Below, one piece after another: positions 7,011-24,678 of a DNA stretch of 64,000 bases. Position 1 is the stretch's first letter; each line of letters begins with the position of its first letter. Source of the DNA: Oscillospiraceae bacterium. GTDB lineage: Bacteria; Bacillota; Clostridia; Oscillospirales; Oscillospiraceae. The notes beneath the pieces are model-generated. The model made no database searches. It was not told the DNA's origin and saw nothing but the letters and a program-made list of their open reading frames with translations. Location: the NCBI GenBank assembly GCA_963667545.2, contig OY763424.2, forward strand, positions 780,240 to 844,239. The letters are read 5' to 3'. The position numbers were made by a program, and so were the translations under genes.

Positions 7011-7838
7011 ATGAACAGCAACGTTACGCGCTCAAACGTTGAAATTATAAGCCAATGGGATAGGGACAAATTTAACATCCGCTATGCGCTTTTTGACTTC
7101 GACGGTACAATCAGTCTGATCAGAGAGGGCTGGCAGGATATCATGATTCCGTATTTCTGCGAGCTGCTCAAAGAAACAGGTACATCAGAAACGGACGAGG
7201 AGATTATACAGACGGTTCGCCGCTTTGTCACTGACCTAACCGGGAAACAGACGATTTTTCAGTGCATCCGCCTGAATGAGGAGATTGAAAAGCGCGGCGG
7301 CAGGCAGCAGGAACCTATCGTTTTTAAGAGAGAGTATCTGCGCCGCTTGGATTTGCGCATTAAGGAGCGCAAGGAAGCTTTGGCCTCCGGCACCCTCGAA
7401 CCGGAAGCGTGGCTGGTGCCCGGAAGCAGGCAGTTCCTTGAGCTGTTGCAGTCCCACGGCATAAAATGCTATCTTGCCAGCGGCACGGACGAAGAGGACG
7501 TGCTGTATGAAGCAAAGCTGCTGGGGCTTGAAAACGCGTTTGAGGGCGGTATTCATGGTGCGCATGAAGCGATGACCGAGTGCTCCAAAGAGCTTGTTAT
7601 ACACAGTATGCTCGAAAACGAGCACATCCGTCCGGAGGAGCTTGTGTCGTTCGGTGACGGCTATGTGGAGGTCGAACTGGTGGCGCAGCTCGGCGGCCTT
7701 GCCATCGGTGCGGCCACTGAGGAAGCTAAGCGCGAGGGCGTGAACGAGTGGAAGCGCAGCCGCCTTATAGCTGCCGGCGCGTATGCAGTCATCCCCGACT
7801 TCCGCGAAGCCGAAGCCGTATACGAGCTAATTAAGTAA
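7011..7838 (+). CDS. HAD-superfamily hydrolase (probable sugar-phosphate phosphatase)
   Basis: HAD motif I FDFDGT, motif II-like ASGT, motif IV-like GDGYVE. An RBS-like GAGAGGAAAAA is upstream. Confidence 0.8.
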   Translation: MNSNVTRSNVEIISQWDRDKFNIRYALFDFDGTISLIREGWQDIMIPYFCELLKETGTSETDEEIIQTVRRFVTDLTGKQTIFQCIRLNEEIEKRGGRQQEPIVFKREYLRRLDLRIKERKEALASGTLEPEAWLVPGSRQFLELLQSHGIKCYLASGTDEEDVLYEAKLLGLENAFEGGIHGAHEAMTECSKELVIHSMLENEHIRPEELVSFGDGYVEVELVAQLGGLAIGAATEEAKREGVNEWKRSRLIAAGAYAVIPDFREAEAVYELIK

Positions 7839-7895
7839 TTAAAAAACAGTTCGACGCCGCCTTTGCCCCGCCGGATATAAAAAGGAGATATAAAT

Positions 7896-8879
7896 ATGCC
7901 GTTTGCACAGTTTGACCGTTCACAGCTTGAAATTTTGCCGCTCGACAGACGCATTCACGATGTCGATTTGGCAAAGGTGTTGAAGAATGTTAATGACGAG
8001 ATACCGGAGTTCGACCATCCGGCCTTGCCGATACTGGCGGACGCCGTCGTTAAGGCACGCCGCGACTATGATGCGACAGTGCTCATGATGTACGGCGCGC
8101 ATGTTATCCGCACAGGCAATGCCATGTTCATGATAGAGCTCATGAAGCGCGGACTTGTGACGCATTTTGCCACAAACGGCGCGGGCTCCATCCACGATTT
8201 TGAACTGGCAATGATAGGACAGACCTGTGAGAGCGTTGCAAAATACATAAGCGAAGGTCAGTTTGGCATGTGGCAGGAAACAGGCCTGTTAAACGAGGCC
8301 ATAAAGGCCGGAGCCAAGGAAGGCCTAGGCTGGGGCGAGGCCGTGGGCAAATACATTTGGGAGAACAACTTTAAATACCGCGAAAAAAGCGTGCTGGCCA
8401 TGGGCTATCACCTTCAGGTGCCGTGCACCGTGCACATAGGTATAGGAAACGACATCATACATGAGCATCCGAACTGCGACGGCGCGGCTATGGGAGCCTG
8501 CTCCTACACAGACTTCCTCATTTACGCTCAGAGCATTACAAAGCTTCAGCACGGCGTATTTCTGAATTTCGGCTCAGCCGTAGCGGGACCGGAGGTCTAT
8601 CTCAAGGCGCTTGCAATGGCGCGCAACGTGGCTCGTCAGCGCGGAGAAAAGATAGTCGATTTCAACACGGCAGTATTCGACCTCATGCCGATTGACGACA
8701 GTGACAACTATGACACCACCCCGCCCAAGACGGACCCACGCTATTATTTCCGTCCGTGGAAGACAATACTTGCGCGCACGGTTGCCGATGGCGGACACAG
8801 CTGCTATGTGTGCGGTGAGCACAGCAAGACGCTTCCAAATTTGGCGCGGCGCATTCTTACTCTTGACGACGCGCGCTGA
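7896..8879 (+). CDS. Deoxyhypusine synthase-like (DS family fold) protein, function unknown
   Basis: By-eye alignment to the DHS core. [40 protein letters not shown] matches (I)FLGYTSNLISSG...[36 protein letters not shown] matches [29 protein letters not shown] matches GMIILGGGVVKH. Strong RBS AAAGGAG. Confidence 0.5.
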   Translation: [327 protein letters not shown]

Positions 8880-8908
8880 GCGCGGACGGTATTACGGAGG
8901 GCAGACAC

Positions 8909-9931
8909 ATGGATGTTACAAAGATTATTTCTTCCCTGAAAAACACGGGCAAGGTCAAAATCGTGGTATTCGGGGATTATGCGCTCGATAAATATCTCTA
9001 CATAGACCCGGAGAACGACGAGCCTTCCGCCGAGACAGGCTTACCGGCCTATCAGGTACACCGCAAATTTCTATCCGCCGGTGTAGGCGGTACGATAACG
9101 AACAATCTGCGCGCGCTGGGCGCGCAGGTATCCTGCATCGGATTAATAGGCGAGGACGGCGAAGCGTGGGAACTGCTTAACTGCCTGAAGGCTGTCGGCG
9201 CGGATGTTACTCACATGGTGCGCAGTGACAGCATTTGCACCTGCACCTATACGAAGCCAATGCGCAAGGGCTCGGACGGCGTGTACCGCGAGCTGAACCG
9301 TCTGGATTTTCGCAGCATTTGCGAACGCCCGATGGAGGTGCAGCGCGAAATGCTGCGCGAGCTTGAGTCAGTACTGGACTGGGCGGACGGTGTTATAATC
9401 ACCGATCAGTTCTATCAACGCAATGTGAGCGCTGTCACCGACTGGCTGCGCGAGAAGCTCAGCGAGCTTGCCGCCCGCAGAACGGACAAGATTTTCTTCG
9501 CCGATTCGCGCTCGTTTGCAAACGAATACCGCAGTATGATGGTCAAATGCAACAATATCGAGTTCTTCGGTATGCTCGGAGAGCCGGATGCGGATGTTAC
9601 AAATCTGGACGCGATAATTAAAAATGGAGATACGCTTTACCGGCGCAACGGAAGACCGCTGTTTGTCACCAGAGGCGCTGAGGGTATTGTCGTATTCAAC
9701 GGCAAGACCGAAATCGTGCCCGCTTTCCGTGTGGACGGAGAAATTGACATTGTAGGCGCGGGCGACGCGACGAACGCGGGGATAGTGCTGGGGCTTGCGC
9801 TTGGACTGACAGAGGCGGAAGCCGCACTTTTGGCGTGCTGCATATCCTCGATAACCATTCAGCAAATTGGCACGACAGGCACAGCTGAGGTTAAACAGGT
9901 GGCCGAGAGGCTGAGAACCGTTCTGACCTGA
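8909..9931 (+). CDS. PfkB-family carbohydrate kinase, HldE/RfaE domain-I-like
   Basis: KIVVFGDYALDKYLY...P, GG..TNNLRALGA, LNRLDF and GAGDATNAG motifs parallel the HldE heptose-7-phosphate kinase domain. RBS GGAGGG. Confidence 0.8.
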   Translation: MDVTKIISSLKNTGKVKIVVFGDYALDKYLYIDPENDEPSAETGLPAYQVHRKFLSAGVGGTITNNLRALGAQVSCIGLIGEDGEAWELLNCLKAVGADVTHMVRSDSICTCTYTKPMRKGSDGVYRELNRLDFRSICERPMEVQREMLRELESVLDWADGVIITDQFYQRNVSAVTDWLREKLSELAARRTDKIFFADSRSFANEYRSMMVKCNNIEFFGMLGEPDADVTNLDAIIKNGDTLYRRNGRPLFVTRGAEGIVVFNGKTEIVPAFRVDGEIDIVGAGDATNAGIVLGLALGLTEAEAALLACCISSITIQQIGTTGTAEVKQVAERLRTVLT

Positions 9932-9947
9932 TTCGGGGAGGATACCG

Positions 9948-10823
9948 ATGAACAACGTCTACAAGCTCTTTCATGGACTCTATGTGGACAAAAGCCGTCT
10001 TATCGAGATGCTTAAGGCGTTCTATATGTTCACGCATTTGAAGATATCGTTTTTTGATACGGAGTTCAACCAGCTTCAGGAGTGGCCGCTGCCGCAGTGC
10101 GAGCTCTGCCAGCTTATACGCAGGGACGAAATTCAGACTTGTCTGAAGTGCGACGCGGAGGGCTTCATGCGCTGTCATGAAAAAAAAGATGTTCATTCCT
10201 ATCAGTGCCACGCGGGACTGATGGAGATGATCATTCCCATAAAGCTTGAGGAAATGATTATCGGCTACATCATGTTCGGCCAGATGATCGGGGCCGAAAA
10301 CGCCATCGAAACCAAGCAGCGTCTGTTTGAAATGCACAGGGAGCTGGCAAACGAGGATGAGCTGCGCAGAGTAATTGACCTCATAGATGTCCGGAGTGAG
10401 GAGGAGCTTGAAGCCGCCACCCTTATCGGCAAAGCCTGCATCAGTTATCTGCTCAACGAACGCGTCGTGAGCGTGGACCGCAATAATCTTGTGGATCGCA
10501 TCGACGCCTATATCATTGACAATATGGCGCAGGGCTTTTCGGTTGAGGATCTCTGCACATACCTGAACATGAAACACTCCTCCTTCTATGCCCTTACCAA
10601 TGAAGGACTGGGCTGCTCAATCGGCGAATATATCAAGAAAAAGCGTATCGAAACGGCGAAAACGCTGCTTAAAGACACAGATTTGCCGGTATCCATGATA
10701 GCTGAAAAGGTCGGGTTCAGCGACTATAATTACTTTCTTCGCTGCTTTAAAAAACAGGTCGGCGTGACCTGCCGCGCATACAGAAGAAATGTTTCTGACT
10801 GTCAACATATACAAAACGCATAA
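9948..10823 (+). CDS. AraC-family transcriptional regulator with N-terminal PocR-type sensory domain
   Basis: A Cys/His-rich PocR-like region (CELCQLIR...CLKCD...YQCHAGLMEMIIPI...G) followed by a C-terminal dual HTH (IETAKTLLKDTDLPVSMIAEKVGFSDYNYFLRCFKK). Confidence 0.8.
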   Translation: MNNVYKLFHGLYVDKSRLIEMLKAFYMFTHLKISFFDTEFNQLQEWPLPQCELCQLIRRDEIQTCLKCDAEGFMRCHEKKDVHSYQCHAGLMEMIIPIKLEEMIIGYIMFGQMIGAENAIETKQRLFEMHRELANEDELRRVIDLIDVRSEEELEAATLIGKACISYLLNERVVSVDRNNLVDRIDAYIIDNMAQGFSVEDLCTYLNMKHSSFYALTNEGLGCSIGEYIKKKRIETAKTLLKDTDLPVSMIAEKVGFSDYNYFLRCFKKQVGVTCRAYRRNVSDCQHIQNA

Positions 10824-11023
10824 CATTAAACTGGTAAAATGAACAGATTCCGTCATTCGGCATTAAATCTGTAAAAAAATTTCCTTTGTAGAATATTACA
10901 CTTTTCTAAATAAAAATGCCTATACAGTTTCCTGCACATGGATTACTATGAATTTAGTAGATGACTTGGTAAAAAATTTGCCTGTAAGTCAATAGTCGCA
11001 TGGAAGTTGTTAGGTGTTTTTTT

Positions 11024-12484
11024 ATGAACAAATTGAAGGTCGGCCTTGTTGGCAGCTCGCAGCTCAGTTTTCCCGGAGATAAGGAAGGCACTTTCGGACG
11101 CTCTGTTGCCGAAGTAGTAAAGCTTGCGAAGAAATGGGATTTTGAATTATACGTCTATCCGAAACAGGTCATAACAGCGGATGACGCATACATAGCGCGC
11201 AGCGCACTGGAAGCGGAAAAAACGGATTTTGTCCTTCTCCAGTGTACCAGCTTTTCAGCCGGGTTCCTTGCCCCTGTCTTTGCGCGTACAAAGGACGCGA
11301 GACTCGGACTGTGGGCGATTCCGGAGGGCGCCGTTGAGGGTGCTGTTCCCTTCAACTCGCTTTGCAGCATCAATATGTACTCGGCAATTATCGGACATTA
11401 TCTCGACGCTTATGAGATTCCGCTTAAATGGTTCTATGGTAATGCCGACGATACGCTCTTTATTGACCGTTTTCGCATAACCATCCGCGCGCTCAAGGCT
11501 ATCAAGTACATGCAGCAGTCAAAAGTCGCTCTTGTGGGCGGTATCGCGCCGGGTTTTGACGATTTGTACGACGACGAGCGTAAGCTTATTAAGCTGTTCG
11601 ACGGAATGCGTATCAACCGCCTGCATGAATACGACGAAATTAAAAAGCTTGCCCTGAGCATGGACGCATCGAAGGTTAAGGCCCGCATGGACGAAGAAAC
11701 GGCGCAGGCTAAGGGCTTCCGCCATCCGACGGCGCAAAAAATGCTTGAAACGAATGCTCGCTTTTCACTGGCTTACGATCAGTTCATCGCGGAAACCGGC
11801 TATGACGCCGTCGCGATAAGCTGCTGGCCGAAATTCCAGGACGATTTTCTTTACAGCGTCTGCGCTGTCGTCGGCGAACTGAACGACAAGGGAACTCCGA
11901 CCGCGTGCGAGGGCGACCTTACCTCCGCGATTTGTATGCTGCTTCTGAAATATCTGTCTGAGGATATTACTACGCTGATGGATATGTCCGCGTTCGACAG
12001 GAAAGACGATACGGTGCTTATGTGGCACTGCGGCCCCACGAGCAGACGCTTCTGTGAGAAGAAGGGCTTTGAATACGGGCTCAATTATTCCGGTACGGCG
12101 CATGAGCCAGACGAGAAGGAAGTCAGCGGCACGGGCGTTGTCCGCGACATGGTTTTTGACCCGGGCGAGATTACAATCGCGCGGCTTACCGGAGAAATCG
12201 ACACGATGTTCCTCGCCACCGGAAGTATTATAGACACGGATAAACCCAGCTTCTGCGGCTCACGCGGCTGGGTTGGAAAGCTCGAGATCAACCGTAAGCC
12301 CGTCTCCTCTATTGATTTTCTGAACACCGTGCTTGTTTCGCGCTTCCAGCACCATTTCCCGATAGTTCGGGGAGATTACAGCAAGGAAGTGCTTGAAGCT
12401 ATGGCTTGGCTGAAGTTGAAGAAGGTCGAGATTTCACCCTATCAGGATTATCTTGAAAACCCGGTGTGGTGGGCAAACAAATAG
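11024..12484 (+). CDS. L-fucose/L-arabinose isomerase family protein
   Basis: About 490 aa. The N-terminus KVGLVGSSQLSFPGDKE and central ...CWPKFQD...CAVVGELND.G.P.ACEGD... match the FucI-like fold family. The start is ambiguous (ATG 11000 or 11024). Confidence 0.7.
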   Translation: MNKLKVGLVGSSQLSFPGDKEGTFGRSVAEVVKLAKKWDFELYVYPKQVITADDAYIARSALEAEKTDFVLLQCTSFSAGFLAPVFARTKDARLGLWAIPEGAVEGAVPFNSLCSINMYSAIIGHYLDAYEIPLKWFYGNADDTLFIDRFRITIRALKAIKYMQQSKVALVGGIAPGFDDLYDDERKLIKLFDGMRINRLHEYDEIKKLALSMDASKVKARMDEETAQAKGFRHPTAQKMLETNARFSLAYDQFIAETGYDAVAISCWPKFQDDFLYSVCAVVGELNDKGTPTACEGDLTSAICMLLLKYLSEDITTLMDMSAFDRKDDTVLMWHCGPTSRRFCEKKGFEYGLNYSGTAHEPDEKEVSGTGVVRDMVFDPGEITIARLTGEIDTMFLATGSIIDTDKPSFCGSRGWVGKLEINRKPVSSIDFLNTVLVSRFQHHFPIVRGDYSKEVLEAMAWLKLKKVEISPYQDYLENPVWWANK

Positions 12485-12568
12485 GTATCCATTTACATGG
12501 AGCCCCCGAAAAATTGTGATTTATTGTGTTCACATAAATAAATCAAAATAATTAAGGAGAGCAAAAAA

Positions 12569-13627
12569 ATGAAAAAGGTACTAATCATTGTCTTAGCACT
12601 CGCAATGACCCTGGCTCTAGTAGCATGCGGCACTCCCGCAGCGACCACATCCCCCTCCGCCTCCCCCGCAGCCTCCGCAGACGCGGCTGCAAAGGACAAG
12701 TTCGTAGTCGGAGCACTTGTTTATAAGTATGACGACGTGTATCTGTCCTCCGTTCGTGAAGCTATCCAGAAGTATTCAGACGCCGCCGGCAACATCGAAC
12801 TCAAGATGTATGACGGCCAGGGCGACCAGGGCAAGCAGCTCGATCAGCTGGACGCTATTCTTCAGGACGGCGTTGACTGCCTGCTTGTGAACATGTGCGA
12901 TCAGTCCTCCGCGCAGACCGTTATCAACCTCGTAAAAGACAAGGGCATTCCCCTCGTATTCTTCAACCGTGAGCCTACTGACATAACCGTACTTAAGGGC
13001 TATGACAAGTGCATCTTCGTCGGCACCAGAGCTCAGGATGCAGGCGTCATGCAGGGAGACATGCTGGCTGATCTGTGGACCGCAGACAAGAGCTGGGACC
13101 GCAACGGCGACGGCAAGGTTCAGTATGTTGTATTCAAGGGCGAAGCCGACAACCTCGAAGCTATCGCACGCACCGAGTATTGCCAGTCCGAAGCAAAAGC
13201 CAAGGGCCTCGACATGGTTCCTGTTGCTGACGTTCAGGTCTGCGACTGGACTGCTGAAAAGGCAATGAACGCTATGGAAGCTATCCTTTCCGCTCACAAC
13301 GATGTCGAAGCTGTTCTTTGCAACAACGACGATATGGCTACAGGCGTTATCTCCGCTCTTCAGAACCATGGCTTCAACACCGGCAAAGAAGGCGACAAGA
13401 AGATGATCGTTCTCGGCGTTGACGCAACCGACGCCGCAAAATCCGCAATTGCATCCGGCTATATGCAGGGCACAGTTAAGCAGGACGGCGACGCAATGGC
13501 AAAGGCCTGCATCGACCTCGCTGAAAACTTCCTGGCTGGCAAGGGCGCTCTTGATGGCACCAGCTACAAGCTCGACGAAACCGGTGTCGCAATCCGTATC
13601 CCCTACAGCCCGTTTAACGGCAAATAA
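12569..13627 (+). CDS. ABC sugar transporter substrate-binding lipoprotein (MglB/galactose-glucose-binding type, cluster B)
   Basis: Lipobox LALVAC-G, then a Ser/Pro/Ala linker, then a periplasmic-binding-protein type I fold (VGALVYKYDD...NREP...VLCNNDDMA.G...VLGVDAT). Strong RBS AAGGAGA. Confidence 0.85.
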   Translation: MKKVLIIVLALAMTLALVACGTPAATTSPSASPAASADAAAKDKFVVGALVYKYDDVYLSSVREAIQKYSDAAGNIELKMYDGQGDQGKQLDQLDAILQDGVDCLLVNMCDQSSAQTVINLVKDKGIPLVFFNREPTDITVLKGYDKCIFVGTRAQDAGVMQGDMLADLWTADKSWDRNGDGKVQYVVFKGEADNLEAIARTEYCQSEAKAKGLDMVPVADVQVCDWTAEKAMNAMEAILSAHNDVEAVLCNNDDMATGVISALQNHGFNTGKEGDKKMIVLGVDATDAAKSAIASGYMQGTVKQDGDAMAKACIDLAENFLAGKGALDGTSYKLDETGVAIRIPYSPFNGK

Positions 13628-13647
13628 GCAAAAATCTAATTGAAGAA

Positions 13648-13715: not shown

Positions 13716-15215
13716 ATGTCAGAAACCTATGTTCTTGAAATGTCCGGAATCAGCAAGAGCTTTCCGGGCGTAAGGGCTCTGGACGACGTCCAGATAAAGG
13801 TACGCAGAGGTACGGTTCATTCTCTTTGCGGTGAAAACGGCGCCGGAAAGAGCACCTTGATGAAGTGCCTGTTCGGAATCTATAATCGTGATTCCGGCAC
13901 CATCAAGCTTGACGGACAGGAAGTGGATTTCAAGGATCCGAAAAACGCAATGGACAACGGCGTTGCAATGGTTCATCAGGAGCTGAATCAGGTGCTGCAG
14001 CGCAGTATCATGGAGAACATCTGGCTGGGTCGCGTTCCGCGCAATAAAGCGGGGCTTGTCGATCAGAAAAAGATGTACGATGTAACGAAGAAAATATTTG
14101 ATGATTTGGAAATTGGCGCCGATCCCAGAGAGAAAATCGGTAACCTGTCTGTTTCCGGACGCCAGATGGTCGAAATCGCCAGAGCAGTTTCGCATAACAT
14201 TAAATTGCTCGTTCTGGACGAGCCAACATCATCTCTGGCGGACAATGAGGTCAAGCAGCTGTTTAAGATTATCAACAAGCTGCGTGACAGCGGAGTTGGC
14301 ATCATTTATATATCTCATAAAATGGAAGAGGTTCTGCGCATCTCAGACGACGTAACCATTATGCGGGACGGCAAATGGATTACGACCGAGAAGGCCTCGG
14401 ATCTAACACTGAACAAAATAATCAGCCTGATGGTCGGGCGCAACATGGAAAACCGTTTCCCGCCAAAGGTCAACGAGCCTGGCGAAAACATCATGACCGT
14501 TGAGCATCTCACCAGTACATATATGCCGGGGTGTATCGATGTTTCATTCGATCTGCGCAAGGGTGAAATTCTCGGTATCGCGGGGCTTGTCGGTTCACGC
14601 AGAACCGAGCTTTTGGAAACGATTTTCGGAACGCGGCATCACAACTCCGGTACTATAATTGTGCACGATAAAAAAATCAACAACAAGACCTCGCGTGACG
14701 CGCTGAAAAACGGATTTGCAATGTTGACTGAGGAACGCCGCGCCAGCGGAATTTTCGGTGTGGATTCAGTCCTGTTCAATTCGGTTATCGCAAATATTAC
14801 GTCATATAAAAGACTGATTTTTTTGAATCAGAAAAAGATGGATAAAGATACCGACTGGGTAGTCGAATCGATGAACGTCAAGACTCCGAGCAAGAAGACG
14901 AAGATAAAACTTCTTTCCGGCGGCAATCAGCAAAAAGTTATCATCGGCCGCTGGCTGCTTACAAAACCCGAAATCCTGCTGATGGATGAACCCACGCGAG
15001 GCATTGACGTAGGCGCGAAATACGAGATTTACCAGCTCATAAACAATGTCGCCAAGGAGGGAAAGGCCGTCGTCGTTGTTTCCTCCGAAATGCCGGAGCT
15101 GCTCGGCATCTGCGATCGCATTGCCGTCATGTCAAACGGGCATATGGCGGGCATTCTTGATATTCAGGACGCAACGCAGGAGAAAATTATGGAACTTGCA
15201 GTTCAATACATTTAA
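13716..15215 (+). CDS. Sugar ABC transporter ATP-binding protein, duplicated-ATPase type (MglA/RbsA-like)
   Basis: Walker [10 protein letters not shown], signature LSVSGRQ, Walker [10 protein letters not shown] second degenerate cassette carries LSGGNQQK and [12 protein letters not shown]. Confidence 0.9.
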
Positions 15216-16569: not shown

Positions 16570-17136
16570 ATGAAAGACTATACAGATCAGATTAATACCT
16601 ATTACGACCGCTTAAAGAGCACTATCGACAAAATTGACCGCAATGAGATAAATCGGGCAATGGAGGCTTTAAAGCAGACAAGAGACAATAAAAAATACAT
16701 ATTCATTATGGGCAACGGCGGCAGCGCATCGACCGCCTCGCATTTCGCAGGGGATTTCAACAAGGGCCTGAGCCTGAACCGTGACAAGAAATTCCGTTTT
16801 GTTTGCCTCAACGACAACGCCGCAACTGTGCTGAGCCTTGCAAACGATGTTGCATACGACGCAATTTTTGTTGAGCAGCTCAAGAATTTTCTCTCTGAGG
16901 GCGATGTCGTTATGGCGATTTCCGGAAGCGGCAACTCGAAAAATGTTGTCCGCGCAGTGGAATACGCAAAAGAAAAAGGAAATCAGGTAATCGGACTCAC
17001 CGGTTACAGCGGCGGAGAGCTTAAGAAGCTGTCGGATGTAAAGCTTCACATTCCAATCGACGATATGCAGGTCGTTGAGGATTTGCATATGGTGTTTGAC
17101 CATTTGATAATGTCGATTCTTTATAGGGAAGACTGA
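16570..17136 (+). CDS. SIS-domain sugar-phosphate isomerase, GmhA (sedoheptulose-7-phosphate isomerase)-like
   Basis: GNGGSASTASHFAGDF, ISGSGNSKNV, IGLTGYSGGEL and VEDLHMVFDH align with the GmhA motifs GNGGSHCDAMHFAEEL, STSGNSANV, TLTGKDGGKM and IQEIHIKVIH. Confidence 0.8.
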   Translation: MKDYTDQINTYYDRLKSTIDKIDRNEINRAMEALKQTRDNKKYIFIMGNGGSASTASHFAGDFNKGLSLNRDKKFRFVCLNDNAATVLSLANDVAYDAIFVEQLKNFLSEGDVVMAISGSGNSKNVVRAVEYAKEKGNQVIGLTGYSGGELKKLSDVKLHIPIDDMQVVEDLHMVFDHLIMSILYRED

Positions 17137-17176: not shown

Positions 17177-18115
17177 ATGAAGAAAATACTATGCATTGAC
17201 ATAGGCGGCTCCAAGATGCTGTCTGGCGTCATTGATGAAACGGGAAAAGTTCTGTTTTCGCGCAAGCTTCTGCTGCGTCATCCGACAAAGCAGCAGGTGG
17301 CGGACGCCATACTTACCGAAAGCGAAGCCGTAATGAAATCCGACGAATGGAAGGACGGCGAAACAGACGATATAGACTGCGTCGGCGTATCCATACCGGG
17401 ACTTACGGATCCCGAAAAGGGAATATGGGTCTACGCGCCGTTTTCGCACATAGAAAACTTCGATGTGCGTGCCCTGCTCAATGAAAAATACCATAAGCCT
17501 GTGTATTTGGAAAACGACGGCAATATATGTACTCTGGGAGAAAAACGCTTTGGCGTTGCCAAGGACGTGTCGGATTTTATCTGGGTGACGGTCAGCAACG
17601 GGATCGGCTCGGGCGTGTTTCTTGACAACAAAGTGTTTCGGGGCTTTTCAAACGGAGCGGGAGAGCTGGGCCATGTCAAGGTTGTCGATTACGGTGTAAA
17701 ATGCCACTGCGGCGCGCGCGGCTGTCTTGAAGCCTATGGCGCCGCCCCGGGCATAGTGAGACGTTACAAGGAGTTAAGCGGCAGGCAGCACGAAATAACC
17801 GCGCAGGAGGTAGCTCAGCTTGCCCGTAACGGCGACAAAAACGCACAGCGGGTGTTTGAGGACGAGGGCTTTTATCTTGGCAAGGGCATAGCGGCTGCAG
17901 TCAATATCATAAATGTGCCGCTGGTTGTTATCGGCGGCGGCGTATCCGGTTCATTTGATCTGTTTGAAGCGTCACTCAGGTCGACGCTGAAGGATTTCAT
18001 TTTTATGGACGCAAATAAGAACCTCCGGATAGAAAAAACGGGACTGGGCTACGAAGCGTCGCTGATCAGCGCGGGAGCCTGTGCCCTGTACGGCATGGAA
18101 AAGGAGGGGCTTTAA
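17177..18115 (+). CDS. ROK-family sugar kinase
   Basis: N-terminal ATPase motif CIDIGGSK, ENDGN, and ROK Zn motif GELGH...CHCGARGCLE. Confidence 0.8.
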   Translation: MKKILCIDIGGSKMLSGVIDETGKVLFSRKLLLRHPTKQQVADAILTESEAVMKSDEWKDGETDDIDCVGVSIPGLTDPEKGIWVYAPFSHIENFDVRALLNEKYHKPVYLENDGNICTLGEKRFGVAKDVSDFIWVTVSNGIGSGVFLDNKVFRGFSNGAGELGHVKVVDYGVKCHCGARGCLEAYGAAPGIVRRYKELSGRQHEITAQEVAQLARNGDKNAQRVFEDEGFYLGKGIAAAVNIINVPLVVIGGGVSGSFDLFEASLRSTLKDFIFMDANKNLRIEKTGLGYEASLISAGACALYGMEKEGL

Positions 18116-19059
18116 TGAAGTTTTTAAGTGTGGGCGAGATGGTCATCGACTTTTTGCCCGGGGACGTGGAAGGAATATATATCCGCAAAGCGGGAGGAGC
18201 GCCTGCAAATGTCGCTATAGCAGTGGCGCGTCACGGCTGTGAAGCCGGCTTCTGCGGTATGATGGGAAATGACGATTTCGGTCATTTTCTTCTGAAAACA
18301 CTGACGGATAACAATGTCACACCGCTTGTAACCGAGCTTACCGATATTGCGACCACGACTATGGCATTCGTAACGCTTGGCGCAGACGGGGATCGCAGCT
18401 TCACCTTCGCGCGCAAGCCCGGCGCGGACATGTTTCTGAAAAAAGAACACCTCAATCATCCATGGTTTGACGAGGCCGGCATAGTCCACGCTGGCTCCTG
18501 CTCCCTGTCCAGGGGTGACGCCAGAAATACCACAATTTTTGCTCTGGAGGAGAGCCGCCGCCGCGGCAAGCTTGTGAGCTTTGATGTGAACTACCGCGAC
18601 CTCTTGTGGGACGGCGATCGCGCTGCCGCGGCAAAGGCTGTTATGGAAATTCTGCCGAATGTCGATTTGCTCAAGATATCCGAGGAGGAAGCCGATATGG
18701 TCGGCGGGGAAGAGACTCTCCAGCGTTTAATGGCGGAAAATGATATTTCGCTTGTAGTCGAAACTCTGGGAGCAAACGGCGTACGCTGCTTCTGGAACGG
18801 CAAGACGCTTGAACTGCTGGGTATTAAGGCTAAATGTGTCGACGCAACCGGCGCCGGAGACGCGTTCTGGGGAGGCTTTCTGGCCACGCTCATGAAATCG
18901 GGCGTACAGTCGGGCAAAGATCTGAACGAGAGCTTTTTACTTAACGCGCTTCAAATCGGCAATATTTCCGGATGGCTGTGCGTACAGAAAAAAGGTGCCA
19001 TTGAATCCCTGCCCACGGCTGAGGAAGTAACGCATCATCTGGAGGAATTCTATAAATGA
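18115..19059 (+). CDS. PfkB-family carbohydrate kinase (fructokinase-like)
   Basis: GGAPANVA, DVNYR..LW and TGAGDAFWGGFL motifs. The start overlaps the upstream stop (TAATG). Confidence 0.8.
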   Translation: MKFLSVGEMVIDFLPGDVEGIYIRKAGGAPANVAIAVARHGCEAGFCGMMGNDDFGHFLLKTLTDNNVTPLVTELTDIATTTMAFVTLGADGDRSFTFARKPGADMFLKKEHLNHPWFDEAGIVHAGSCSLSRGDARNTTIFALEESRRRGKLVSFDVNYRDLLWDGDRAAAAKAVMEILPNVDLLKISEEEADMVGGEETLQRLMAENDISLVVETLGANGVRCFWNGKTLELLGIKAKCVDATGAGDAFWGGFLATLMKSGVQSGKDLNESFLLNALQIGNISGWLCVQKKGAIESLPTAEEVTHHLEEFYK

Positions 19060-19775
19060 ACGAAGCAATCTGGAACGAAAAATGCATCCTTTCCCCGTCG
19101 CTTATATCCGTCTGCGACATGTGCAATCTCGAGCACTCCGTAAAAGAGCTGGAGGACGCAGGAATACAGATGCTGCATGTAGACATTCTCGACGGGCATT
19201 TCAGCCCCAGCATGCCGCTGGGACTTGACACCGTACGTCAGCTTCGCGCAAAGACCGGCATGGCATTTGATGTGCATCTCATGGTTACCGAACACGATTT
19301 CTTTATAAACGAGTTGCTCGACATCGGCGTGCAGCAGATTGTTTTCCACGGCGAATATGAGCCGCATATCGACAACCGCCTCCGCATGATACACCGCCGC
19401 GGCGTACGGGCGGGCGTCGCGCTGAAGCCATCAACGCCGCTGTCAGCTATCGACTATGCATTGGAAAACTGCGACACCGTGCTGCTGATGCTGATCAACC
19501 CAGGTTTTGCTCAAAACAAGGACGAGGGACAGGTTACATATGCTGACCGCAAAATAAAGGAGTTGCGCCGTCTCATAAATCAGCGCGGTTTATCGACCAA
19601 AATCGAACTTGACGGCAGGATTTCCCGAGAAAACATGGCTGCGTACGGTGAAGATTACGCAGATATTTTTGTGGCGGGAAGCACCTGTCTGGATAAAAGG
19701 AATTTGTCCGCCTCGGCGCGGGAACTGCGCGCCTTCCGTGAGGGCGTACTAAGAGGTGAAAAGTATGGAAAGTAA
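19056..19775 (+). CDS. Ribulose-phosphate 3-epimerase family protein (ketose-phosphate 3-epimerase)
   Basis: LHVDILDGHFSPS, DVHLMV and INPGFA motifs of the RPE/AlsE TIM-barrel family. ATGA overlap with the upstream gene. Confidence 0.8.
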   Translation: MNEAIWNEKCILSPSLISVCDMCNLEHSVKELEDAGIQMLHVDILDGHFSPSMPLGLDTVRQLRAKTGMAFDVHLMVTEHDFFINELLDIGVQQIVFHGEYEPHIDNRLRMIHRRGVRAGVALKPSTPLSAIDYALENCDTVLLMLINPGFAQNKDEGQVTYADRKIKELRRLINQRGLSTKIELDGRISRENMAAYGEDYADIFVAGSTCLDKRNLSASARELRAFREGVLRGEKYGK

Positions 19776-20334
19776 CGCAACATACGGCGAAGTCAAGGAG
19801 CTCGTTTTAAGCGAGCTGCGCGTTTCGCTGGACAGTATAGACCCATCTCAGGTGGATAGGCTCATAGACGCAGTGCTGGCCGCGGATCAGGTGTTTTTCG
19901 TCGGCGTGGGCCGCGTTTTGCTTTCGCTTCAGGCTATCGCAAAACGCTGGGCGCATCTGGGCATCAAAACCCATTTTGTCGGCGAGATAACGGAGCCTGC
20001 CATTACGGAAAATGACCTGCTCATAGTCGGCAGCGGCAGCGGAACGACGATGTTTCCCGCCGGTATCGCTGTAAAGGCACATGAAAAGGGCGCGAAAATA
20101 GTACACATTGGTTCTAACCCCGACAGCGGTCTTAAGGACATCGCAGAATTCATGGTACGAATACCAGTGCGCACAAAAGCTTATCTTGAGGACGAAATCG
20201 ATTCAAAACAGCCGATGACCTCGCTTTTTGAACAGTCTCTGCTGCTGCTCGGCGATATAGTCGCAAAGATGATAATCGAGCGGAAACAGCTTGACATGAA
20301 GAATCTCTGGCAGTATCACGCAAATCTGGAGTGA
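19765..20334 (+). CDS. SIS-domain isomerase, 6-phospho-3-hexuloisomerase (HxlB)-like
   Basis: VFFVGVGR, LLIVGSGSGTT and GAKIVHIGS motifs. ATG at 19765 lies 5 nt after AAGAGGTGA (the ORF-track GTG at 19756 is less likely). Confidence 0.75.
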   Translation: MESNATYGEVKELVLSELRVSLDSIDPSQVDRLIDAVLAADQVFFVGVGRVLLSLQAIAKRWAHLGIKTHFVGEITEPAITENDLLIVGSGSGTTMFPAGIAVKAHEKGAKIVHIGSNPDSGLKDIAEFMVRIPVRTKAYLEDEIDSKQPMTSLFEQSLLLLGDIVAKMIIERKQLDMKNLWQYHANLE

Positions 20335-20339
20335 GCGCT

Positions 20340-21392
20340 ATGAAAAAAGAAGATTATCTGAGATATACCGGCAGCATGCAGCAAATTGCCTACGCGCGGC
20401 GAATTGAATACGGCGAGGGCAGAAGCAAGGGCATGCGCGCCGTAGAGGTAAAAAACGGTCCCCTGCGCTTTACGGCGATGGAGGACAAGGCTCTGGACAT
20501 CTGCGAGCTGGAATACAAGGGACTGCAGATTAACTTTCTCTCAAAGCCCGGGCTCAACGGGCGCAATCCCTTTGACACTCACGGCGCGGAGGCGCTGCGC
20601 AGTATCATGGGCGGACTGTTTTTCACCTGCGGGCTTGAAAACATCTGCGCGCCCTTTACCGGTGCGGACGGCAAGGAATACCCCATGCACGGGCGCATTA
20701 GAACAACTCCCGCCGAGCATGTCTGCGCTTCTGCCGAATGGCAAGGCGATGATTATGTTATGACTGTCAGAGGCGAAATGCGCGAAGCGGAGCTTTTCGG
20801 CGAAAATCTTGTGCTTCGCCGGACGATAACGACAAAGCTTGGCGAAAGCGCAATTGCCGTCGAGGACGAAATATCGAACGAGGCTTTCCGCGAAGAACCG
20901 ATGATGCTGATGTACCACTGCAATATGGGCTGGCCGTTCCTTTCGGAAAGAAGCCGCCTTATACTGCCGACAAAAAAGGTTACGCCGCGCGAGGAAATCT
21001 CCGCCGCGCACGCTTCCTCATGGGACGTAATGGACGCGCCGAAGGACAACGAAGCCGAGTATGTTTTCCTGCATGAGCTTAACTGCGACGAAAAGGGCGA
21101 AACCTTTGCGGCTGTCGTGGACGAAGATAGGCAGCTCGCGTTCGTCATTGAATTCAACAAAGTGCAGTTTCCATATTTCATGGAGTGGAAGTCTACCGCA
21201 AGCGGAGACTATGTGCTCGGCCTTGAGCCGTCAAATTCCTCAGTCTATGGCCGCTCTTTCCATGAAAAGAACGGCACTCTGCATATGCTCGCGCCGCAGA
21301 GCTCCGAAAAAAAACGGCTCACCTTCAGAATAGCCGAAGGCTCAGAAGCGCTTGAAGCGCTGGAATGCAGATGCGAAGAACTTCTCAGATAA
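20340..21392 (+). CDS. Aldose 1-epimerase-superfamily protein (DUF4432-like)
   Basis: About 350 aa. The N-terminal pattern ...G.GRSKGMRAVEVKNGPLRFTAMEDKALDICELEYKG..INFLSK.G matches my recollection of DUF4432. Recall-based and not searched. Confidence 0.6.
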   Translation: MKKEDYLRYTGSMQQIAYARRIEYGEGRSKGMRAVEVKNGPLRFTAMEDKALDICELEYKGLQINFLSKPGLNGRNPFDTHGAEALRSIMGGLFFTCGLENICAPFTGADGKEYPMHGRIRTTPAEHVCASAEWQGDDYVMTVRGEMREAELFGENLVLRRTITTKLGESAIAVEDEISNEAFREEPMMLMYHCNMGWPFLSERSRLILPTKKVTPREEISAAHASSWDVMDAPKDNEAEYVFLHELNCDEKGETFAAVVDEDRQLAFVIEFNKVQFPYFMEWKSTASGDYVLGLEPSNSSVYGRSFHEKNGTLHMLAPQSSEKKRLTFRIAEGSEALEALECRCEELLR

Positions 21393-21440: not shown

Positions 21441-22121
21441 ATGAAAAGATCGGAAATCAACGCTGTTATCAGACGCTTTGAAAAACTGCTTGCCGAGCAT
21501 TGCTTTGAAATCCCGCCCTACCTGAAATTTACGCCTGAGGAATGGCAGACCAAGGGACACGAATATGACGAAATTCGCGACAATATGCTGGGCTGGGACG
21601 TCACCGACTACGGTATGGGCGATTACGCAACGCTTGGGCTTGCGCTTATAACCCTGCGCAACGGCAACGTGCATAACCCGAAATATACAAAGACCTACGC
21701 CGAAAAAATCATCATGTGTGACGAGGGACAGGTCTCTCCGATGCACTTCCACTGGAGCAAGATGGAGGACATCATAAACCGCGGCGGAAATGATATCGTA
21801 TTTACGCTTTACAATGCCACAAAGGATGAACAGCTCGACACAACCGACGTTGAAATTTGTCAGGACGGACGCCGCTACATGGTCCCCGCGGGAGCGCCCA
21901 TTGTGCTGCATCCCGGAGACAGCCTTTCGCTTTATCCGTATTACTATCATGAGTTTGTCATTCCCAAGGGCGGCAGCGTGCTTATCGGCGAGGTGTCAAT
22001 GTGTAACGACGACAATACCGACAACCGCTTTTTAAAGCCTCTTGGACGTTTCCCGACTATCGAGGAGGACGAGAAGCCCTATCGTCTGCTCTGTAACGAA
22101 TACCCGGCGGCAAAGGATTAA
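21441..22121 (+). CDS. D-lyxose/D-mannose ketol-isomerase (cupin)
   Basis: 226 aa. WDVTDYGMGDY...GL..ITLRNG, EKIIMCDEGQVSPMHFHWSKMEDIINRGG and the GEVS..NDD tail are characteristic of the YdaE/D-lyxose isomerase family. Strong RBS AAGGAG. Confidence 0.8.
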   Translation: MKRSEINAVIRRFEKLLAEHCFEIPPYLKFTPEEWQTKGHEYDEIRDNMLGWDVTDYGMGDYATLGLALITLRNGNVHNPKYTKTYAEKIIMCDEGQVSPMHFHWSKMEDIINRGGNDIVFTLYNATKDEQLDTTDVEICQDGRRYMVPAGAPIVLHPGDSLSLYPYYYHEFVIPKGGSVLIGEVSMCNDDNTDNRFLKPLGRFPTIEEDEKPYRLLCNEYPAAKD

Positions 22122-22145
22122 TTATATTGAAACAGAGGAAATATT

Positions 22146-22778
22146 ATGGTACTGAAATCTGTTGACGACAGCGCGTTTCGCACCTACGGGCGAATCATTA
22201 CGGAGCTTAATTTTTCCGGACTGACGGAGGCTCTGCAAAAAACTCCGCGCCCTGCGGACTCGGTAATATACGTTGCGTCAGAGCCGGAGCTTGAAAAGCT
22301 TCCGGTCTTCAGTGAGCTTCAAAACCGGATTTTCGGCGAGCTGCCGATACAGCTCGGTTACTGCAACGGCAACAACTATTTATTGAACGCACTGGAATAC
22401 CACCATTCAAGCGAGATAAATGTTGCGGCGACGGACGCAATACTGATGGTCGGACGCGTACAGGACATTACACCGGAGCATACCTACGACACGGCAAAGG
22501 TGGAGCTTTTCCGTCTGCCGAAAGGCACAGCTGTTGAACTCTATGCCACTACCCTGCATTACGCGCCGTGCAATGCCGACAGCGAAGGCTTCCGTGTCGC
22601 GGTAGTCCTTCCGCGCGGCACCAACTCGGAGCTTAACGCGGAGCACCCCGCAAGCGGCGAGGACCGCCTTATTACCGCGAAGAACAAGTGGCTTATCGGG
22701 CATCCCGATGCGGGGCTGCCGAGCGATAACTGCCTTGGCCTTGTCGGAGAAAACATCTCGGTCAAATCGCTTATTTAA
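22146..22778 (+). CDS. DUF4867-like protein (ureidoglycolate-lyase-like fold), function unknown
   Basis: The 210-aa size, N-terminus F..YGRII and EYHHSSE fit my recollection of DUF4867. Recall-based only. Confidence 0.45.
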   Translation: MVLKSVDDSAFRTYGRIITELNFSGLTEALQKTPRPADSVIYVASEPELEKLPVFSELQNRIFGELPIQLGYCNGNNYLLNALEYHHSSEINVAATDAILMVGRVQDITPEHTYDTAKVELFRLPKGTAVELYATTLHYAPCNADSEGFRVAVVLPRGTNSELNAEHPASGEDRLITAKNKWLIGHPDAGLPSDNCLGLVGENISVKSLI

Positions 22779-22817
22779 CGTGAACGGGCGAATACATCGC
22801 TATAAGGAACTTGAGCT

Positions 22818-23819
22818 ATGAAAAAAGGAATCGCTGTTGCGGGCACTATGCTCGTAGATACCATTTACCCCATAGATCACTATCCGGAAAACGGCGGTCT
22901 TGCAACTATCGGAGATAGTATTACAAGAGCTACAGGCGGCGCCGTATGCAATGTTATCATAGATTTGGCAAAGCTCGATGAAGCGCTGCCCTTAACGGCT
23001 CTGGGCGTAATCGGAAACGATGAAAACGGGCGATTCATTGAAGAAAGCCTGTCGGCCTTCGGAAACATTGACCTGTCTCAGGTTGCCCGCGGGGGTATGA
23101 CCTCCTTTTCGACGGTAATGAGCGATCTCCGTTCCAAACAGAGGACTTTTTTCAGCTTCAAGGGCGCAAGCTCAGGCTTCTCAGAGGCTCACATAGACTG
23201 GGAACGCCTTAACATCAGCCACCTGCATGCGGGGTATCTCCTGTTTTTAGACGAGCTCGACGGGCCGGACGAGGAGTTCGGCACAAAAATGGCAAGGCTT
23301 CTGGCCTCAGCAAAGAAGAGGAGCATAAGCACCTCCATAGATCTCGTCAGCGGCACCGCCGACCGCTTCAAGGCCGTTGTGCCTCCGGCTCTGAAGTACA
23401 CGGACTACTGCATAATAAATGAAACGGAAGCTGAAGGCCTTACGGACATACCACTTAGAAGAAAGGGAAATGTCTGTGAGGAAAATATGCTTTTGGCTCT
23501 CCGCGCGATAAAGGACATGGGCGTATCCCGATGGGCGGTAATACACGCGCCGGAGGGTGGCTACGGACTCGACTGCTCCTTCGGTAAAATCGTAAGAATA
23601 AAAAGTCTGAGCCTGCCGGAGGGCTTTATCAAAGGTACAACAGGAGCGGGCGACGCTTTTTGCTCCGGTGTGCTTTACGCAGCCTATATCGGCAAATCTT
23701 TGACAGAAGCAATCGAACTCGGCACCGGCTGCGCGGCCTGCTCTCTTTCCGAGCCGGGAGCGACCGAAGGAATGCGCTCGTATGAAAAAGTGTTGGAGTT
23801 CTATAAAAAAATGAGATAA
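22818..23819 (+). CDS. PfkB-family carbohydrate kinase
   Basis: GGAVCNV, DLVS and TTGAGDAFCSGVL motifs. RBS TAAGGAA. Confidence 0.8.
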   Translation: MKKGIAVAGTMLVDTIYPIDHYPENGGLATIGDSITRATGGAVCNVIIDLAKLDEALPLTALGVIGNDENGRFIEESLSAFGNIDLSQVARGGMTSFSTVMSDLRSKQRTFFSFKGASSGFSEAHIDWERLNISHLHAGYLLFLDELDGPDEEFGTKMARLLASAKKRSISTSIDLVSGTADRFKAVVPPALKYTDYCIINETEAEGLTDIPLRRKGNVCEENMLLALRAIKDMGVSRWAVIHAPEGGYGLDCSFGKIVRIKSLSLPEGFIKGTTGAGDAFCSGVLYAAYIGKSLTEAIELGTGCAACSLSEPGATEGMRSYEKVLEFYKKMR

Positions 23820-23835
23820 ACGGAAGTGATATATT

Positions 23836-24678
23836 ATGCTTGTAACTCTTGACGAAGTCTTGAAGGACGCTCAGAAGAAAAAATACGCGGTCGGGCTTTT
23901 CAACACGGTCAATCTAGAAATGGCCGTAGGCGTTATTGCGGCGGCTGAGGAGACAAAATCTCCCGTAATCATCGGAACAGCAGAAGCGCTGCTTCCTTAC
24001 GCGGGATTGGAGGAGCTAGCTTCTCTTCTTCTTCCGATGGCGAAAAAGGCGAGCGTTCCGGTGGTTTTGCACTTTGATCACGGTCTCACATCGGAGATGA
24101 TAATAAAATCTATGGCTTTGGGCTTCAGCTCCGTTATGTACGACTGTTCCACCTTCAGCTATGCGGAGAATATCGACAGGTGCAGGGAGATGAAGAGAAT
24201 AGCCGCGGGTTTCGGCGCTACTCTTGAGGCCGAGCTGGGTCATGTGGGCTTAGCCTCCGATTCCGCCGAAGCCGACGGACACGACAGCGTTTATACAGAC
24301 CCCGCACAGGCGAAGGATTTTGTTGAAAAGACCGGTGTGGACGCACTGGCGGTTGCAATAGGCACGGCTCACGGGGCATACAAGGTCAAACCCGTACTTG
24401 ATATCGAAGTACTCAAAAAAATTGCCGCCACAATTGACACACCGCTGGTTCTGCACGGCGGCTCAGGTCTGACGGAGGAGGATTTCAAAAACTGCATAGC
24501 TAACGGCATCAGCAAGGTCAACATCTTCACGGACATCAACTGCGCCGCCGCGAAAGCCGCTTTTGACAGCTATAAAAACGGCTTTGGAATGACGGATATT
24601 ATGGGAAGCATCGCTTCCGCAGTCAAGACCGCGACAATAGAAAAAATGAGGATATTCGGCTGCTCAAACAAAGGCTGA
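23836..24678 (+). CDS. Class II ketose-bisphosphate aldolase (fructose/tagatose-1,6-bisphosphate aldolase family)
   Basis: YAVGLFN, LHFDHG, ELGHVG, AIGTAHG.YK and LVLHGGSG motifs of the FbaA/GatY/KbaY family. Confidence 0.85.
   Translation: MLVTLDEVLKDAQKKKYAVGLFNTVNLEMAVGVIAAAEETKSPVIIGTAEALLPYAGLEELASLLLPMAKKASVPVVLHFDHGLTSEMIIKSMALGFSSVMYDCSTFSYAENIDRCREMKRIAAGFGATLEAELGHVGLASDSAEADGHDSVYTDPAQAKDFVEKTGVDALAVAIGTAHGAYKVKPVLDIEVLKKIAATIDTPLVLHGGSGLTEEDFKNCIANGISKVNIFTDINCAAAKAAFDSYKNGFGMTDIMGSIASAVKTATIEKMRIFGCSNKG

Follow-up and report, generated by a model that had tools for sequence, protein, structure and literature searches.

A putative mosaic sugar operon in an Oscillospiraceae bacterium and the GSU2086 protein family that it exposes

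Which sugar is handled by a locus that combines heptose-biosynthesis-type enzymes with a sugar importer and an aldolase, and do its genes serve one route? The locus occupies positions 7011-24678 of a 64,000-nucleotide stretch of DNA from a gut-type Clostridia bacterium of the Oscillospiraceae (hereafter the window; contig OY763424.2). Heptoses are major building blocks of the Gram-negative envelope, and heptose 1,7-bisphosphate and ADP-heptose are agonists of innate immunity. In the literature that we searched, we found no dedicated bacterial route for the uptake and degradation or salvage of heptoses, in agreement with an earlier sequence-only reading of this DNA (the original prediction), which held such catabolic loci to be barely described. 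Here, we propose that the locus is a mosaic, importer-linked sugar operon, apparently built from three separately conserved cassettes, and we consider a mosaic catabolic operon very probable. The most informative gene of the locus encodes a GSU2086-family protein, which the original prediction missed. The value of the locus lies less in an aldolase scheme than in the widespread enzyme family that it exposes.

Composition and boundaries of the locus

The locus holds 19 open reading frames (ORFs), all on the plus strand, and the ORF list of the window has no credible minus-strand gene inside it. The original prediction had the genes rightly as co-directional, counted 18 of them, and gave a gene list that is correct as far as it goes while leaving out the GSU2086, DUF4432 and DUF4867 proteins, the PocR/AraC regulator and a 69-aa peptide. 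Starts overlap or abut the upstream stop at 16259, 18115, 19056/19059, 19756/19775 and 20331/20334, the overlaps at 16259, 18115 and 19056 having already been pointed out, and the widest gaps are 177 bp (3' of the regulator gene) and 102 bp (5' of the SIS gene). Two complete Caproiciproducens genomes share the gene order from HAD to DUF4867, and in a metagenome-assembled genome (MAG) of the Oscillospiraceae the match runs from HAD to PfkB2, where the compared stretch stops. Because the order recurs in these genomes, we take the arrangement to be real and conserved.

Families were assigned with Pfam and NCBIfam models, with scores given in bits against curated cut-offs; these methods name families, and the substrate is beyond their reach. 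They agree with the families named in the original prediction (HAD, three PfkB kinases, an Mgl-type importer, two SIS proteins, ROK, RPE, LyxI and an aldolase). What we call cassette A consists of a HAD-superfamily phosphatase/phosphotransferase with a DxDGT motif, HAD-IB-like (7011-7838), the GSU2086-family protein (7896-8879; NF052581, 391.2 bits vs 250, residues 5-318), an HldA-like PfkB kinase with rfaE_dom_I as its top model (PfkB1; 8909-9931; TIGR02198, 116.8 bits vs 345), a GmhA-subfamily SIS isomerase (16570-17136; TIGR00441, 118.5 bits vs 209.45) and a ROK-family sugar kinase without a helix-turn-helix domain (17177-18115). Cassette B consists of a fructokinase-like PfkB kinase (PfkB2; 18115-19059; 217 bits vs 450), a protein of the ribulose-phosphate 3-epimerase family (RPE; 19056-19775; TIGR01163, 178.4 vs 212.6; NF004076, 163.9 vs 165), an HxlB/PHI-like SIS isomerase (19756-20334; TIGR03127, 173.2 bits vs 160), an aldose-1-epimerase-like DUF4432 protein (20331-21392; Pfam) and a D-lyxose/D-mannose isomerase cupin (LyxI; 21441-22121; PF07385, 321 bits vs 20.8; NF051472, 264.5 vs 350). 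A DUF4867 cupin of the SftX/SqvB family (22146-22778; Pfam) follows cassette B in this lineage only, and a third PfkB kinase with no close equivalog (PfkB3; 22818-23819) and a class II ketose-bisphosphate aldolase (23836-24678; TIGR00167, 261.2 bits vs 215.6) form a lineage-specific add-on.

Within cassette A, between PfkB1 and the SIS gene, lie a PocR-sensor/AraC-type transcriptional regulator (9948-10823), a FucI/SftI-like aldose-ketose isomerase of 494 aa (11000-12484; SftI, 129.6 bits vs 700; no Pfam match) and the importer, made up of an MglB-like substrate-binding lipoprotein (12569-13627; 254 bits vs 420), an MglA-like tandem ATP-binding cassette (ABC) ATPase (13716-15215; 785.3 bits vs 828), an MglC-like permease (15231-16259; 397.9 bits vs 386) and the 69-aa protein with a C-terminal hydrophobic helix (16259-16468). 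As the original prediction had stated, the locus lacks a nucleotidyltransferase: neither a CTP_transf_like nor an NTP_transferase domain was found in any of the 19 ORFs by Pfam and NCBIfam.

At the upstream boundary, the divergent intergenic region between larB and the first gene of the locus measures 254 bp and holds a plus-strand promoter-like site (6936-6964; TTGACT-17-AAGAAT with an extended TG; consensus match only). At the downstream boundary, a bidirectional terminator-like hairpin with a 20-bp stem (24709-24756, both strands) lies between the aldolase gene and a convergent gene of the major facilitator superfamily (MFS). Promoter-like and terminator-like counts were otherwise at shuffle level, and this hairpin alone stands out.

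Cassette A and the GSU2086 family

Cassette A recurs in most of 83 related loci. In a census of the neighbours within 6 kb of GSU2086 genes at these loci, a HAD homologue and a PfkB1-type kinase were each present in 63 of the 83, a GmhA-like SIS protein in 57 (in 34 of these as a SIS-HAD fusion), and a ROK protein and an ABC ATPase in 27 each, as against a class II aldolase in three distant loci (L077, L081, L085) and LarBCE in one. Cassette A in L081 and L077 is accompanied by a ROK protein, the class II aldolase and a further PfkB kinase, and in L081 also by a FucI-like isomerase and an importer. In Clostridia, cassette A often adjoins genes for CUT2-type sugar binding proteins, for LacI or ROK regulators and for ABC components. 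Two families lead the count of 149 other neighbouring ORFs, AP_endonuc_2 (xylose-isomerase-like TIM barrel; 15) and the Gfo/Idh/MocA oxidoreductases (14), and both are typical peripheral enzymes of sugar catabolism. Nucleoside (BMP-type) importers were considered for cassette A loci with two permease genes and were ruled out, their binding proteins being of the sugar type (Peripla_BP_4) by Pfam. A role in uptake or catabolism fits because cassette A is so often importer-linked (CUT2, LacI/ROK, Gfo/Idh/MocA, TIM barrels).

What connects this cassette to heptoses is the company that GSU2086 keeps. The family occurs in fusions of the forms HAD-GSU2086, SIS-GSU2086, GSU2086-SIS, GSU2086-PfkB and PfkB-HAD-GSU2086, and also with transferases, as GSU2086-nucleotidyltransferase and DUF89-nucleotidyltransferase-GSU2086. 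The best model for the fused transferase domains is rfaE_dom_II (up to 169 bits vs 181.5), and for the fused kinase rfaE_dom_I (158 bits). In Geobacter sulfurreducens the gene order is hldE, GSU2086, gmhA, with matching transposon sequencing (Tn-seq) defects of -3.1, -3.2 and -3.7 (PMC5585712). Two Lachnospiraceae loci (L056 and L040) have a nucleotidyltransferase-PfkB fusion gene directly 3' of GSU2086, and L056, a glycan cluster of the nucleotide-heptose type, also encodes a GmhA-like protein, a GmhB-like HAD-IIIA protein (158.6 bits vs 178), a GT2 glycosyltransferase, a radical SAM protein and an HD protein. In the tree, the GSU2086 proteins of biosynthetic contexts nest inside an importer-linked Firmicute clade. 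Taken together, synteny and fusion tie cassette A to heptose-phosphate enzymes across several phyla.

The window's own proteins follow this pattern in part. Across its whole length, the SIS protein shares 53% identity with the GmhA-like protein of L056, and its active-site variants are identical; compared with GmhA, its best-matching family, both His residues are kept, Glu is replaced by Asp and Gln by Glu. In contrast, PfkB1 is only 22% identical to the L056 cluster kinase, and its best PDB match, the HldA of B. cenocepacia, is remote (42 bits over the full length). The HAD protein is recognised by HAD-IB and generic models only, and by no GmhB model. The heptose-type trio of the original prediction is accordingly part of a conserved cassette linked to heptose genes, while all three members score far below the equivalog cut-offs and the HAD is not GmhB-like. 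The SIS isomerase, in a GmhA subfamily of its own, and GSU2086 are the constant pair, the kinase and phosphatase being context-specific. Two three-domain proteins (P0173, P0191) combine a DUF89/ARMT1 domain ('damage-control phosphatase') with GSU2086 and an rfaE_dom_II-like nucleotidyltransferase, which suggests that DUF89 can fill the phosphatase role held elsewhere by HAD.

Is GSU2086 a substitute for a known step? As a stand-in for the nucleotidyltransferase, GmhB or GmhA it was ruled out, since it co-occurs or is fused with homologues of each. Since each of the four canonical heptose-activation steps has a homologue that occurs alongside GSU2086, we infer that this protein most likely adds a step and replaces none, acting on a heptose phosphate or on sedoheptulose 7-phosphate beside the isomerase. 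A short-chain dehydrogenase/reductase (SDR) adjoining GSU2086 in Kuenenia has 25% identity to an approximate E. coli HldD query, which is generic SDR similarity, and our literature search on Geobacter hldD or gmhB returned nothing usable.

One of the closest known systems is the biosynthesis of ADP- and GDP-glycero-manno-heptose (GmhA, HldE/HldA or HddA, GmhB, HldC/HddC, HldD). Cassette A resembles it in the GmhA-subfamily isomerase, the rfaE_dom_I/HldA-type PfkB and the HAD, and its GSU2086 is elsewhere syntenic or fused with true-looking HldE, GmhA and GmhB homologues. However, the locus has no nucleotidyltransferase, its scores are far below the equivalog cut-offs, and its HAD is HAD-IB-like and not a HAD-IIIA GmhB; it has instead an importer, catabolic genes and an extra enzyme with a deoxyhypusine-synthase-like fold. 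Judged by the four features that define this pathway (GmhA, kinase, GmhB and nucleotidyltransferase), each of which is lacking in its proper form, the locus is not a member of it.

ADP-/GDP-heptose biosynthesis runs through isomerase, kinase and phosphatase in that order, and the same logic could make cassette A anabolic or a salvage unit, which would form a modified heptose 1-phosphate-type precursor of a surface glycan from sedoheptulose 7-phosphate or an imported heptose and would merely share the operon. Many copies are indeed bare sets of regulator, SIS-HAD, GSU2086 and PfkB without a transporter (e.g. L004, L013-L018), and GSU2086 sits in the biosynthetic clusters of Geobacter and Lachnospiraceae. 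However, nucleotidyltransferase and glycosyltransferase genes are missing from the vicinity of the window copy and of most Clostridia copies, the window cassette and an importer stand jointly under an AraC regulator of the sugar type, and in the census an importer ATPase lies within 6 kb at 27 of the 83 loci, the commonest other neighbours being catabolic-type oxidoreductases and TIM barrels. We consider the anabolic alternative quite unlikely.

What, then, might GSU2086 do? The family has more than 8000 homologues, all annotated as hypothetical, and no function was described for it in the literature that we searched. The window protein is 60-65% identical to homologues in Planctomycetota, Armatimonadota and Chloroflexota, and as a query it matched 2161 cluster representatives at 50% identity. 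A plain sequence search of the PDB gave no significant match. The AlphaFold2 model (pLDDT 87.8) has as its top Foldseek matches a Methanococcus maripaludis structure (3c2q), the C-terminal domain of ArgZ/AgrE and deoxyhypusine synthase, each at a probability of 1.0, with TM-scores of ~0.5 and ~13% identity. The first of these is of the LOR/SDH type, an archaeal ornithine-cyclodeaminase-like protein, and one ArgZ/AgrE entry has NAD+ and ornithine bound. A sequence alignment shows a motif common to GSU2086 and the ArgZ/AgrE-type proteins (G-x-x-v-I-x-T-G ... H-D-x-E), and a GSU2086 profile search recovers AgrE and ArgZ at an E-value of ~0.08 only.

From this predicted fold, GSU2086 is probably a dinucleotide-binding enzyme. 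By the titles of their PDB entries, deoxyhypusine synthase and AgrE bind NAD+; they use it for transient oxidation of the substrate. GSU2086 shares with deoxyhypusine synthase and the LOR-SDH ornithine cyclodeaminases the predicted fold and the short motif around a loop of the Rossmann-like domain. Unlike them it is found among sugar-phosphate enzymes, in all of its genomic associations, whereas their substrates are amines, and the likeness is known here from a predicted fold at a TM-score of ~0.5 and ~13% identity. An epimerase chemistry is rather doubtful. Our literature search on deoxyhypusine synthase together with heptose found nothing relevant.

Other arrangements of GSU2086 genes were also seen. 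Some Clostridia have two copies: two loci hold a tandem pair (L034, 9016-10972; L037, 1257-3226), a third has two genes ~9.5 kb apart (L020, positions 445 and 10001), and in one protein of 679 aa (P0121) the domain is duplicated internally. In four anammox-type/Planctomyces genomes (L072, L075, L078 and L082; Planctomycetota, around positions 10000-12800) GSU2086 stands without a heptose-type neighbour; a PurH (AICARFT/IMPCHase) gene adjoins it in L072, L078 and L082, and L075 has an ORF of the same size at that place.

The importer, the remaining cassettes and the choice of sugar

The importer resembles the E. coli mgl system in its three components, with the MglC model passed and the MglA model nearly so. 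It differs in that the binding protein is a lipoprotein which falls short of the MglB model (254 vs 420) and has four of ten sugar contacts changed, and in having the additional 69-aa membrane peptide. The binding protein aligns over its full length with the glucose/galactose-binding protein (GGBP) of Salmonella and scores ~235 bits against GGBP structures. On what we take to be the ten sugar-contact positions of GGBP, D14, N91, R158, W183, N211 and D236 are kept, and the four changes are F16Y, H152N, D154E and N256Q, at positions that are presumably near O1 and O6 of the bound hexose. The pocket could fit a sugar that is glucose/galactose-like in its ring and different at its ends, although this is only suggestive. 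The 69-aa ORF starts at the final base of the permease stop codon and encodes an N-terminal half of acidic/basic character and, at the C terminus, a single hydrophobic helix. Genes for 63-70 aa stand at the equivalent position, directly 3' of the permease gene, in three other loci (L002, L003 and L086, Caproiciproducens among them), and phmmer finds a homologue in L006. The peptide possibly belongs to the ABC importer as an accessory subunit.

Cassette B is encountered on its own. In Bifidobacterium, DUF4432 homologues have ~60% identity, and LyxI, PfkB and DUF4432 genes are joined by an RPE gene, with a 188-aa protein without a recorded Pfam match in the position of the PHI-like SIS; the cassette of Bifidobacterium eulemuris has an MFS transporter and a DeoR regulator beside it, and no heptose-like gene. 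A second Clostridia contig (L088) has PfkB, RPE, SIS, DUF4432 and LyxI in the order of the window, no heptose-type gene, and transaldolase, Dak, aldolase and L-arabinose genes as neighbours. These comparisons weaken the single heptose route of the original prediction. Cassette B is an independent module that would convert an aldose to a ketose and then to a ketose phosphate. A simple reading, which would put the near-canonical RPE to use, runs from D-lyxose through D-xylulose and xylulose 5-phosphate to ribulose 5-phosphate. Both RPE models are borderline-below for this protein, and the AlsE model scores 127 bits vs 271. The name of the NF051472 model that LyxI misses (LyManIsomGneg) suggests that it was built on Gram-negative members. 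No hexulose-phosphate synthase gene stands beside the PHI-like SIS gene in the locus, where the RPE-family gene adjoins instead, and our literature search on DUF4432 returned nothing relevant.

Does the whole locus, then, serve only a rare hexose or pentose (D-lyxose, D-mannose, D-allulose, D-allose or tagatose), the heptose likeness of cassette A being one of family level? The solitary cassettes of Bifidobacterium eulemuris and L088 favour this, as would the D-lyxose route with an RPE so close to its cut-off (163.9 vs 165). So do the fructokinase-like PfkB2, a binding protein that keeps six of ten GGBP pocket residues with a conservative aromatic swap (F16Y) at a seventh, and heptose-type scores that are all below cut-off. 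Against it, GSU2086 and its SIS partner share at least 53-64% identity with their counterparts in nucleotide-heptose-type clusters, GSU2086 lies inside the hldE/gmhA operon of Geobacter (PMC5585712), and the fused nucleotidyltransferase and kinase domains match the rfaE domains best. It would also leave the HAD, GSU2086 and PfkB1 genes, which lead the operon, without a role. We regard it as somewhat unlikely. Even if the substrate were a rare hexose or pentose of the ordinary kind, the mosaic would still show the recombination of sugar cassettes into one regulon.

The 494-aa isomerase and the DUF4867 cupin raise a different candidate. The former was rightly called FucI-like, being related to the FucI-family SftI at 130 bits, and a PDB sequence search with it found no significant match. 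Its relative in L081 (37 bits) scores 23.4 bits with Fucose_iso_C, below cut-off, and 127.7 bits with SftI. The DUF4867 protein aligns with the B. megaterium SqvB structure 9gyy at 189 bits. This family, the SftX/SqvB cupins, has a function termed enigmatic and a FucI-family isomerase as its usual partner (PMC11968277). These matches prompted the idea of a sulfoquinovose pathway of the sulfo-EMP2 or a sulfo-SFT-like kind, for which the SftI-like isomerase, the SqvB match and the presence of a kinase and a class II aldolase, families of sulfo-EMP2 neighbourhoods (PMC11968277), could be cited. It was ruled out, the marker enzymes being missing and the scores low, and we consider it extremely unlikely. 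By Pfam and NCBIfam, the locus has no GH31 sulfoquinovosidase, sulfolactaldehyde reductase or dehydrogenase, or sulfonate exporter; the SftI score is only 129.6 bits against a cut-off of 700; and DUF4867 genes are mostly found in ordinary aldose/ketose contexts (PMC11968277). The locus also resembles LyxI sugar clusters and the 'aldose/ketose metabolism' neighbourhoods of DUF4867 in the same study, in that it has DUF4867 beside a FucI-family isomerase, along with LyxI, a kinase, an epimerase and a mutarotase-like protein, and differs from them in that its cassette is spliced to a heptose-type cassette and an aldolase.

As for the aldolase, the original prediction had the route end with sedoheptulose 7-phosphate, its phosphorylation to sedoheptulose 1,7-bisphosphate and cleavage to dihydroxyacetone phosphate and erythrose 4-phosphate. 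In cellulolytic clostridia, a sedoheptulose-bisphosphate bypass of the pentose phosphate pathway uses phosphofructokinase and fructose 1,6-bisphosphate (FBP) aldolase. The kinase and class II aldolase of the window could likewise split sedoheptulose 1,7-bisphosphate into these two products; the difference is that the kinase here is a PfkB without a close equivalog, and that the pair is missing from a syntenic locus. The aldolase passes its subfamily model, with every substrate-specific equivalog (FBP, tagatose-bisphosphate) below cut-off. In Caproiciproducens the locus stops at DUF4867, with PfkB3 and the aldolase both absent; since it is otherwise syntenic, the proposed ending is not part of the core. 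We propose that PfkB3 and the aldolase may be a lineage-specific extra exit to triose phosphate.

The reading that we favour, tentatively and at a little short of even confidence, is that of a monosaccharide operon of three cassettes, controlled by the AraC/PocR regulator and dependent on the ABC importer, in which cassette A acts on heptose phosphates. An imported manno-type heptose would be phosphorylated by the ROK kinase or a PfkB kinase, either directly or after isomerisation by LyxI or the FucI-like enzyme, and PfkB1 and the HAD would place or correct the phosphate. GSU2086 would be dinucleotide-dependent and redox-neutral, with a transient oxidation of heptose 7-phosphate or sedoheptulose 7-phosphate next to the GmhA-like step, most simply an epimerisation, e.g. 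at C6. The GmhA-like isomerase would then yield sedoheptulose 7-phosphate, and cassette B and the PfkB3-aldolase pair would deal with further ketose phosphates or open a second exit. The mosaic structure, the importer linkage and the association with heptose genes come from comparison; the substrate and the chemistry of GSU2086 are what we infer from them. Heptose itself is a possible substrate about which our doubts outweigh our confidence.

Several points weigh against this reading. The GmhA-like, HldA-like and HAD proteins are so far below the equivalog cut-offs that they could act on another sugar phosphate; in addition, the HAD is not of the GmhB type, nor is PfkB1 an orthologue of the biosynthetic-cluster kinase. 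A kinase and phosphatase pair is unusual for a catabolic route. Many cassette A copies have no nearby transporter, which would also fit an anabolic role. D-lyxose or D-mannose explains cassette B more simply. With a TM-score of ~0.5 and 13% identity, the cofactor and chemistry of GSU2086 are guesses.

The GSU2086 family is very large and strongly conserved and in Geobacter lies between hldE and gmhA. Its assignment would close a gap in a supposedly complete pathway and would make testable the idea that abundant gut Clostridia feed on the envelope sugars of their neighbours. A more far-reaching proposal would make GSU2086 an unrecognised dinucleotide-dependent heptose-phosphate epimerase or isomerase, partnered by a dedicated GmhA subfamily, which would serve an alternative nucleotide-heptose step in Geobacter and Lachnospiraceae and, in Clostridia, the first dedicated import-linked heptose salvage or catabolism, e.g. 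of L-glycero-D-manno-heptose, a lipopolysaccharide sugar; in its extreme version, the enzyme would use a nickel-pincer cofactor. We hold this to be unlikely.

Flanking genes and the nickel-pincer idea

The nickel-pincer version arises from the genes upstream. A LarE-like PP-loop protein, LarC (203.5 bits vs 90) and LarB (278.8 bits vs 175) are encoded at 3902-6757 on the minus strand, in a head-to-head arrangement with the operon, and the window ORFs that were scanned include no LarA. The nickel-pincer enzyme NphT was reached by a search for LarBCE clusters that lack LarA, and an ornithine cyclodeaminase is reported as a user of NPAD (PMC13524815). GSU2086, whose best fold matches are ornithine-cyclodeaminase-type proteins, could on these grounds use a cofactor (NPN or NPAD) made by the adjacent LarB, LarC and LarE and be a third non-LarA nickel-pincer enzyme. 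We judge this very unlikely. Among the 83 other loci the LarBCE adjacency occurs once, in the closest relative (the MAG), the Caproiciproducens locus has no LarBCE upstream, and the genome-sized Caproiciproducens contigs have no LarC down to ~50% identity. Two further LarBCE clusters, in relatives (L090 and L091), likewise lack a LarA gene next to them. That of L090 has a DUF362/ferredoxin protein for a neighbour, and that of L091 adjoins glycerophosphodiester phosphodiesterase (GDPD) and MFS genes, the families that flank the locus of the window at 24787-27278, so that the adjacency looks like regional synteny. We thus judge the adjacency of LarBCE and the operon to be coincidental, since it is not conserved across the 83 loci, the LarC homologue search and the two LarC neighbourhoods. 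The L091 arrangement also hints at an insertion or rearrangement that brought the sugar locus to its present place.

The remaining neighbours are of minor note. Just past the LarE-like gene lie a WYL/WCX-domain regulator (2358-3392, minus strand) and a 159-aa protein without a Pfam match (3362-3841). On the other side, the MFS transporter (minus strand) and the GDPD (24787-27278) flank the locus, followed by a 636-aa ORF without a Pfam match (27346-29256, minus strand), which is upstream of an ABC ATPase gene (29231-30166). Farther along the window, two divergent T-box leaders (54494-54737, minus strand, 102 bits; 54996-55266, plus strand, 111 bits) stand ahead of a LeuA-like gene (52936-54531) and of a group of plus-strand genes, among them one for a dihydroxy-acid dehydratase (58922-60607).

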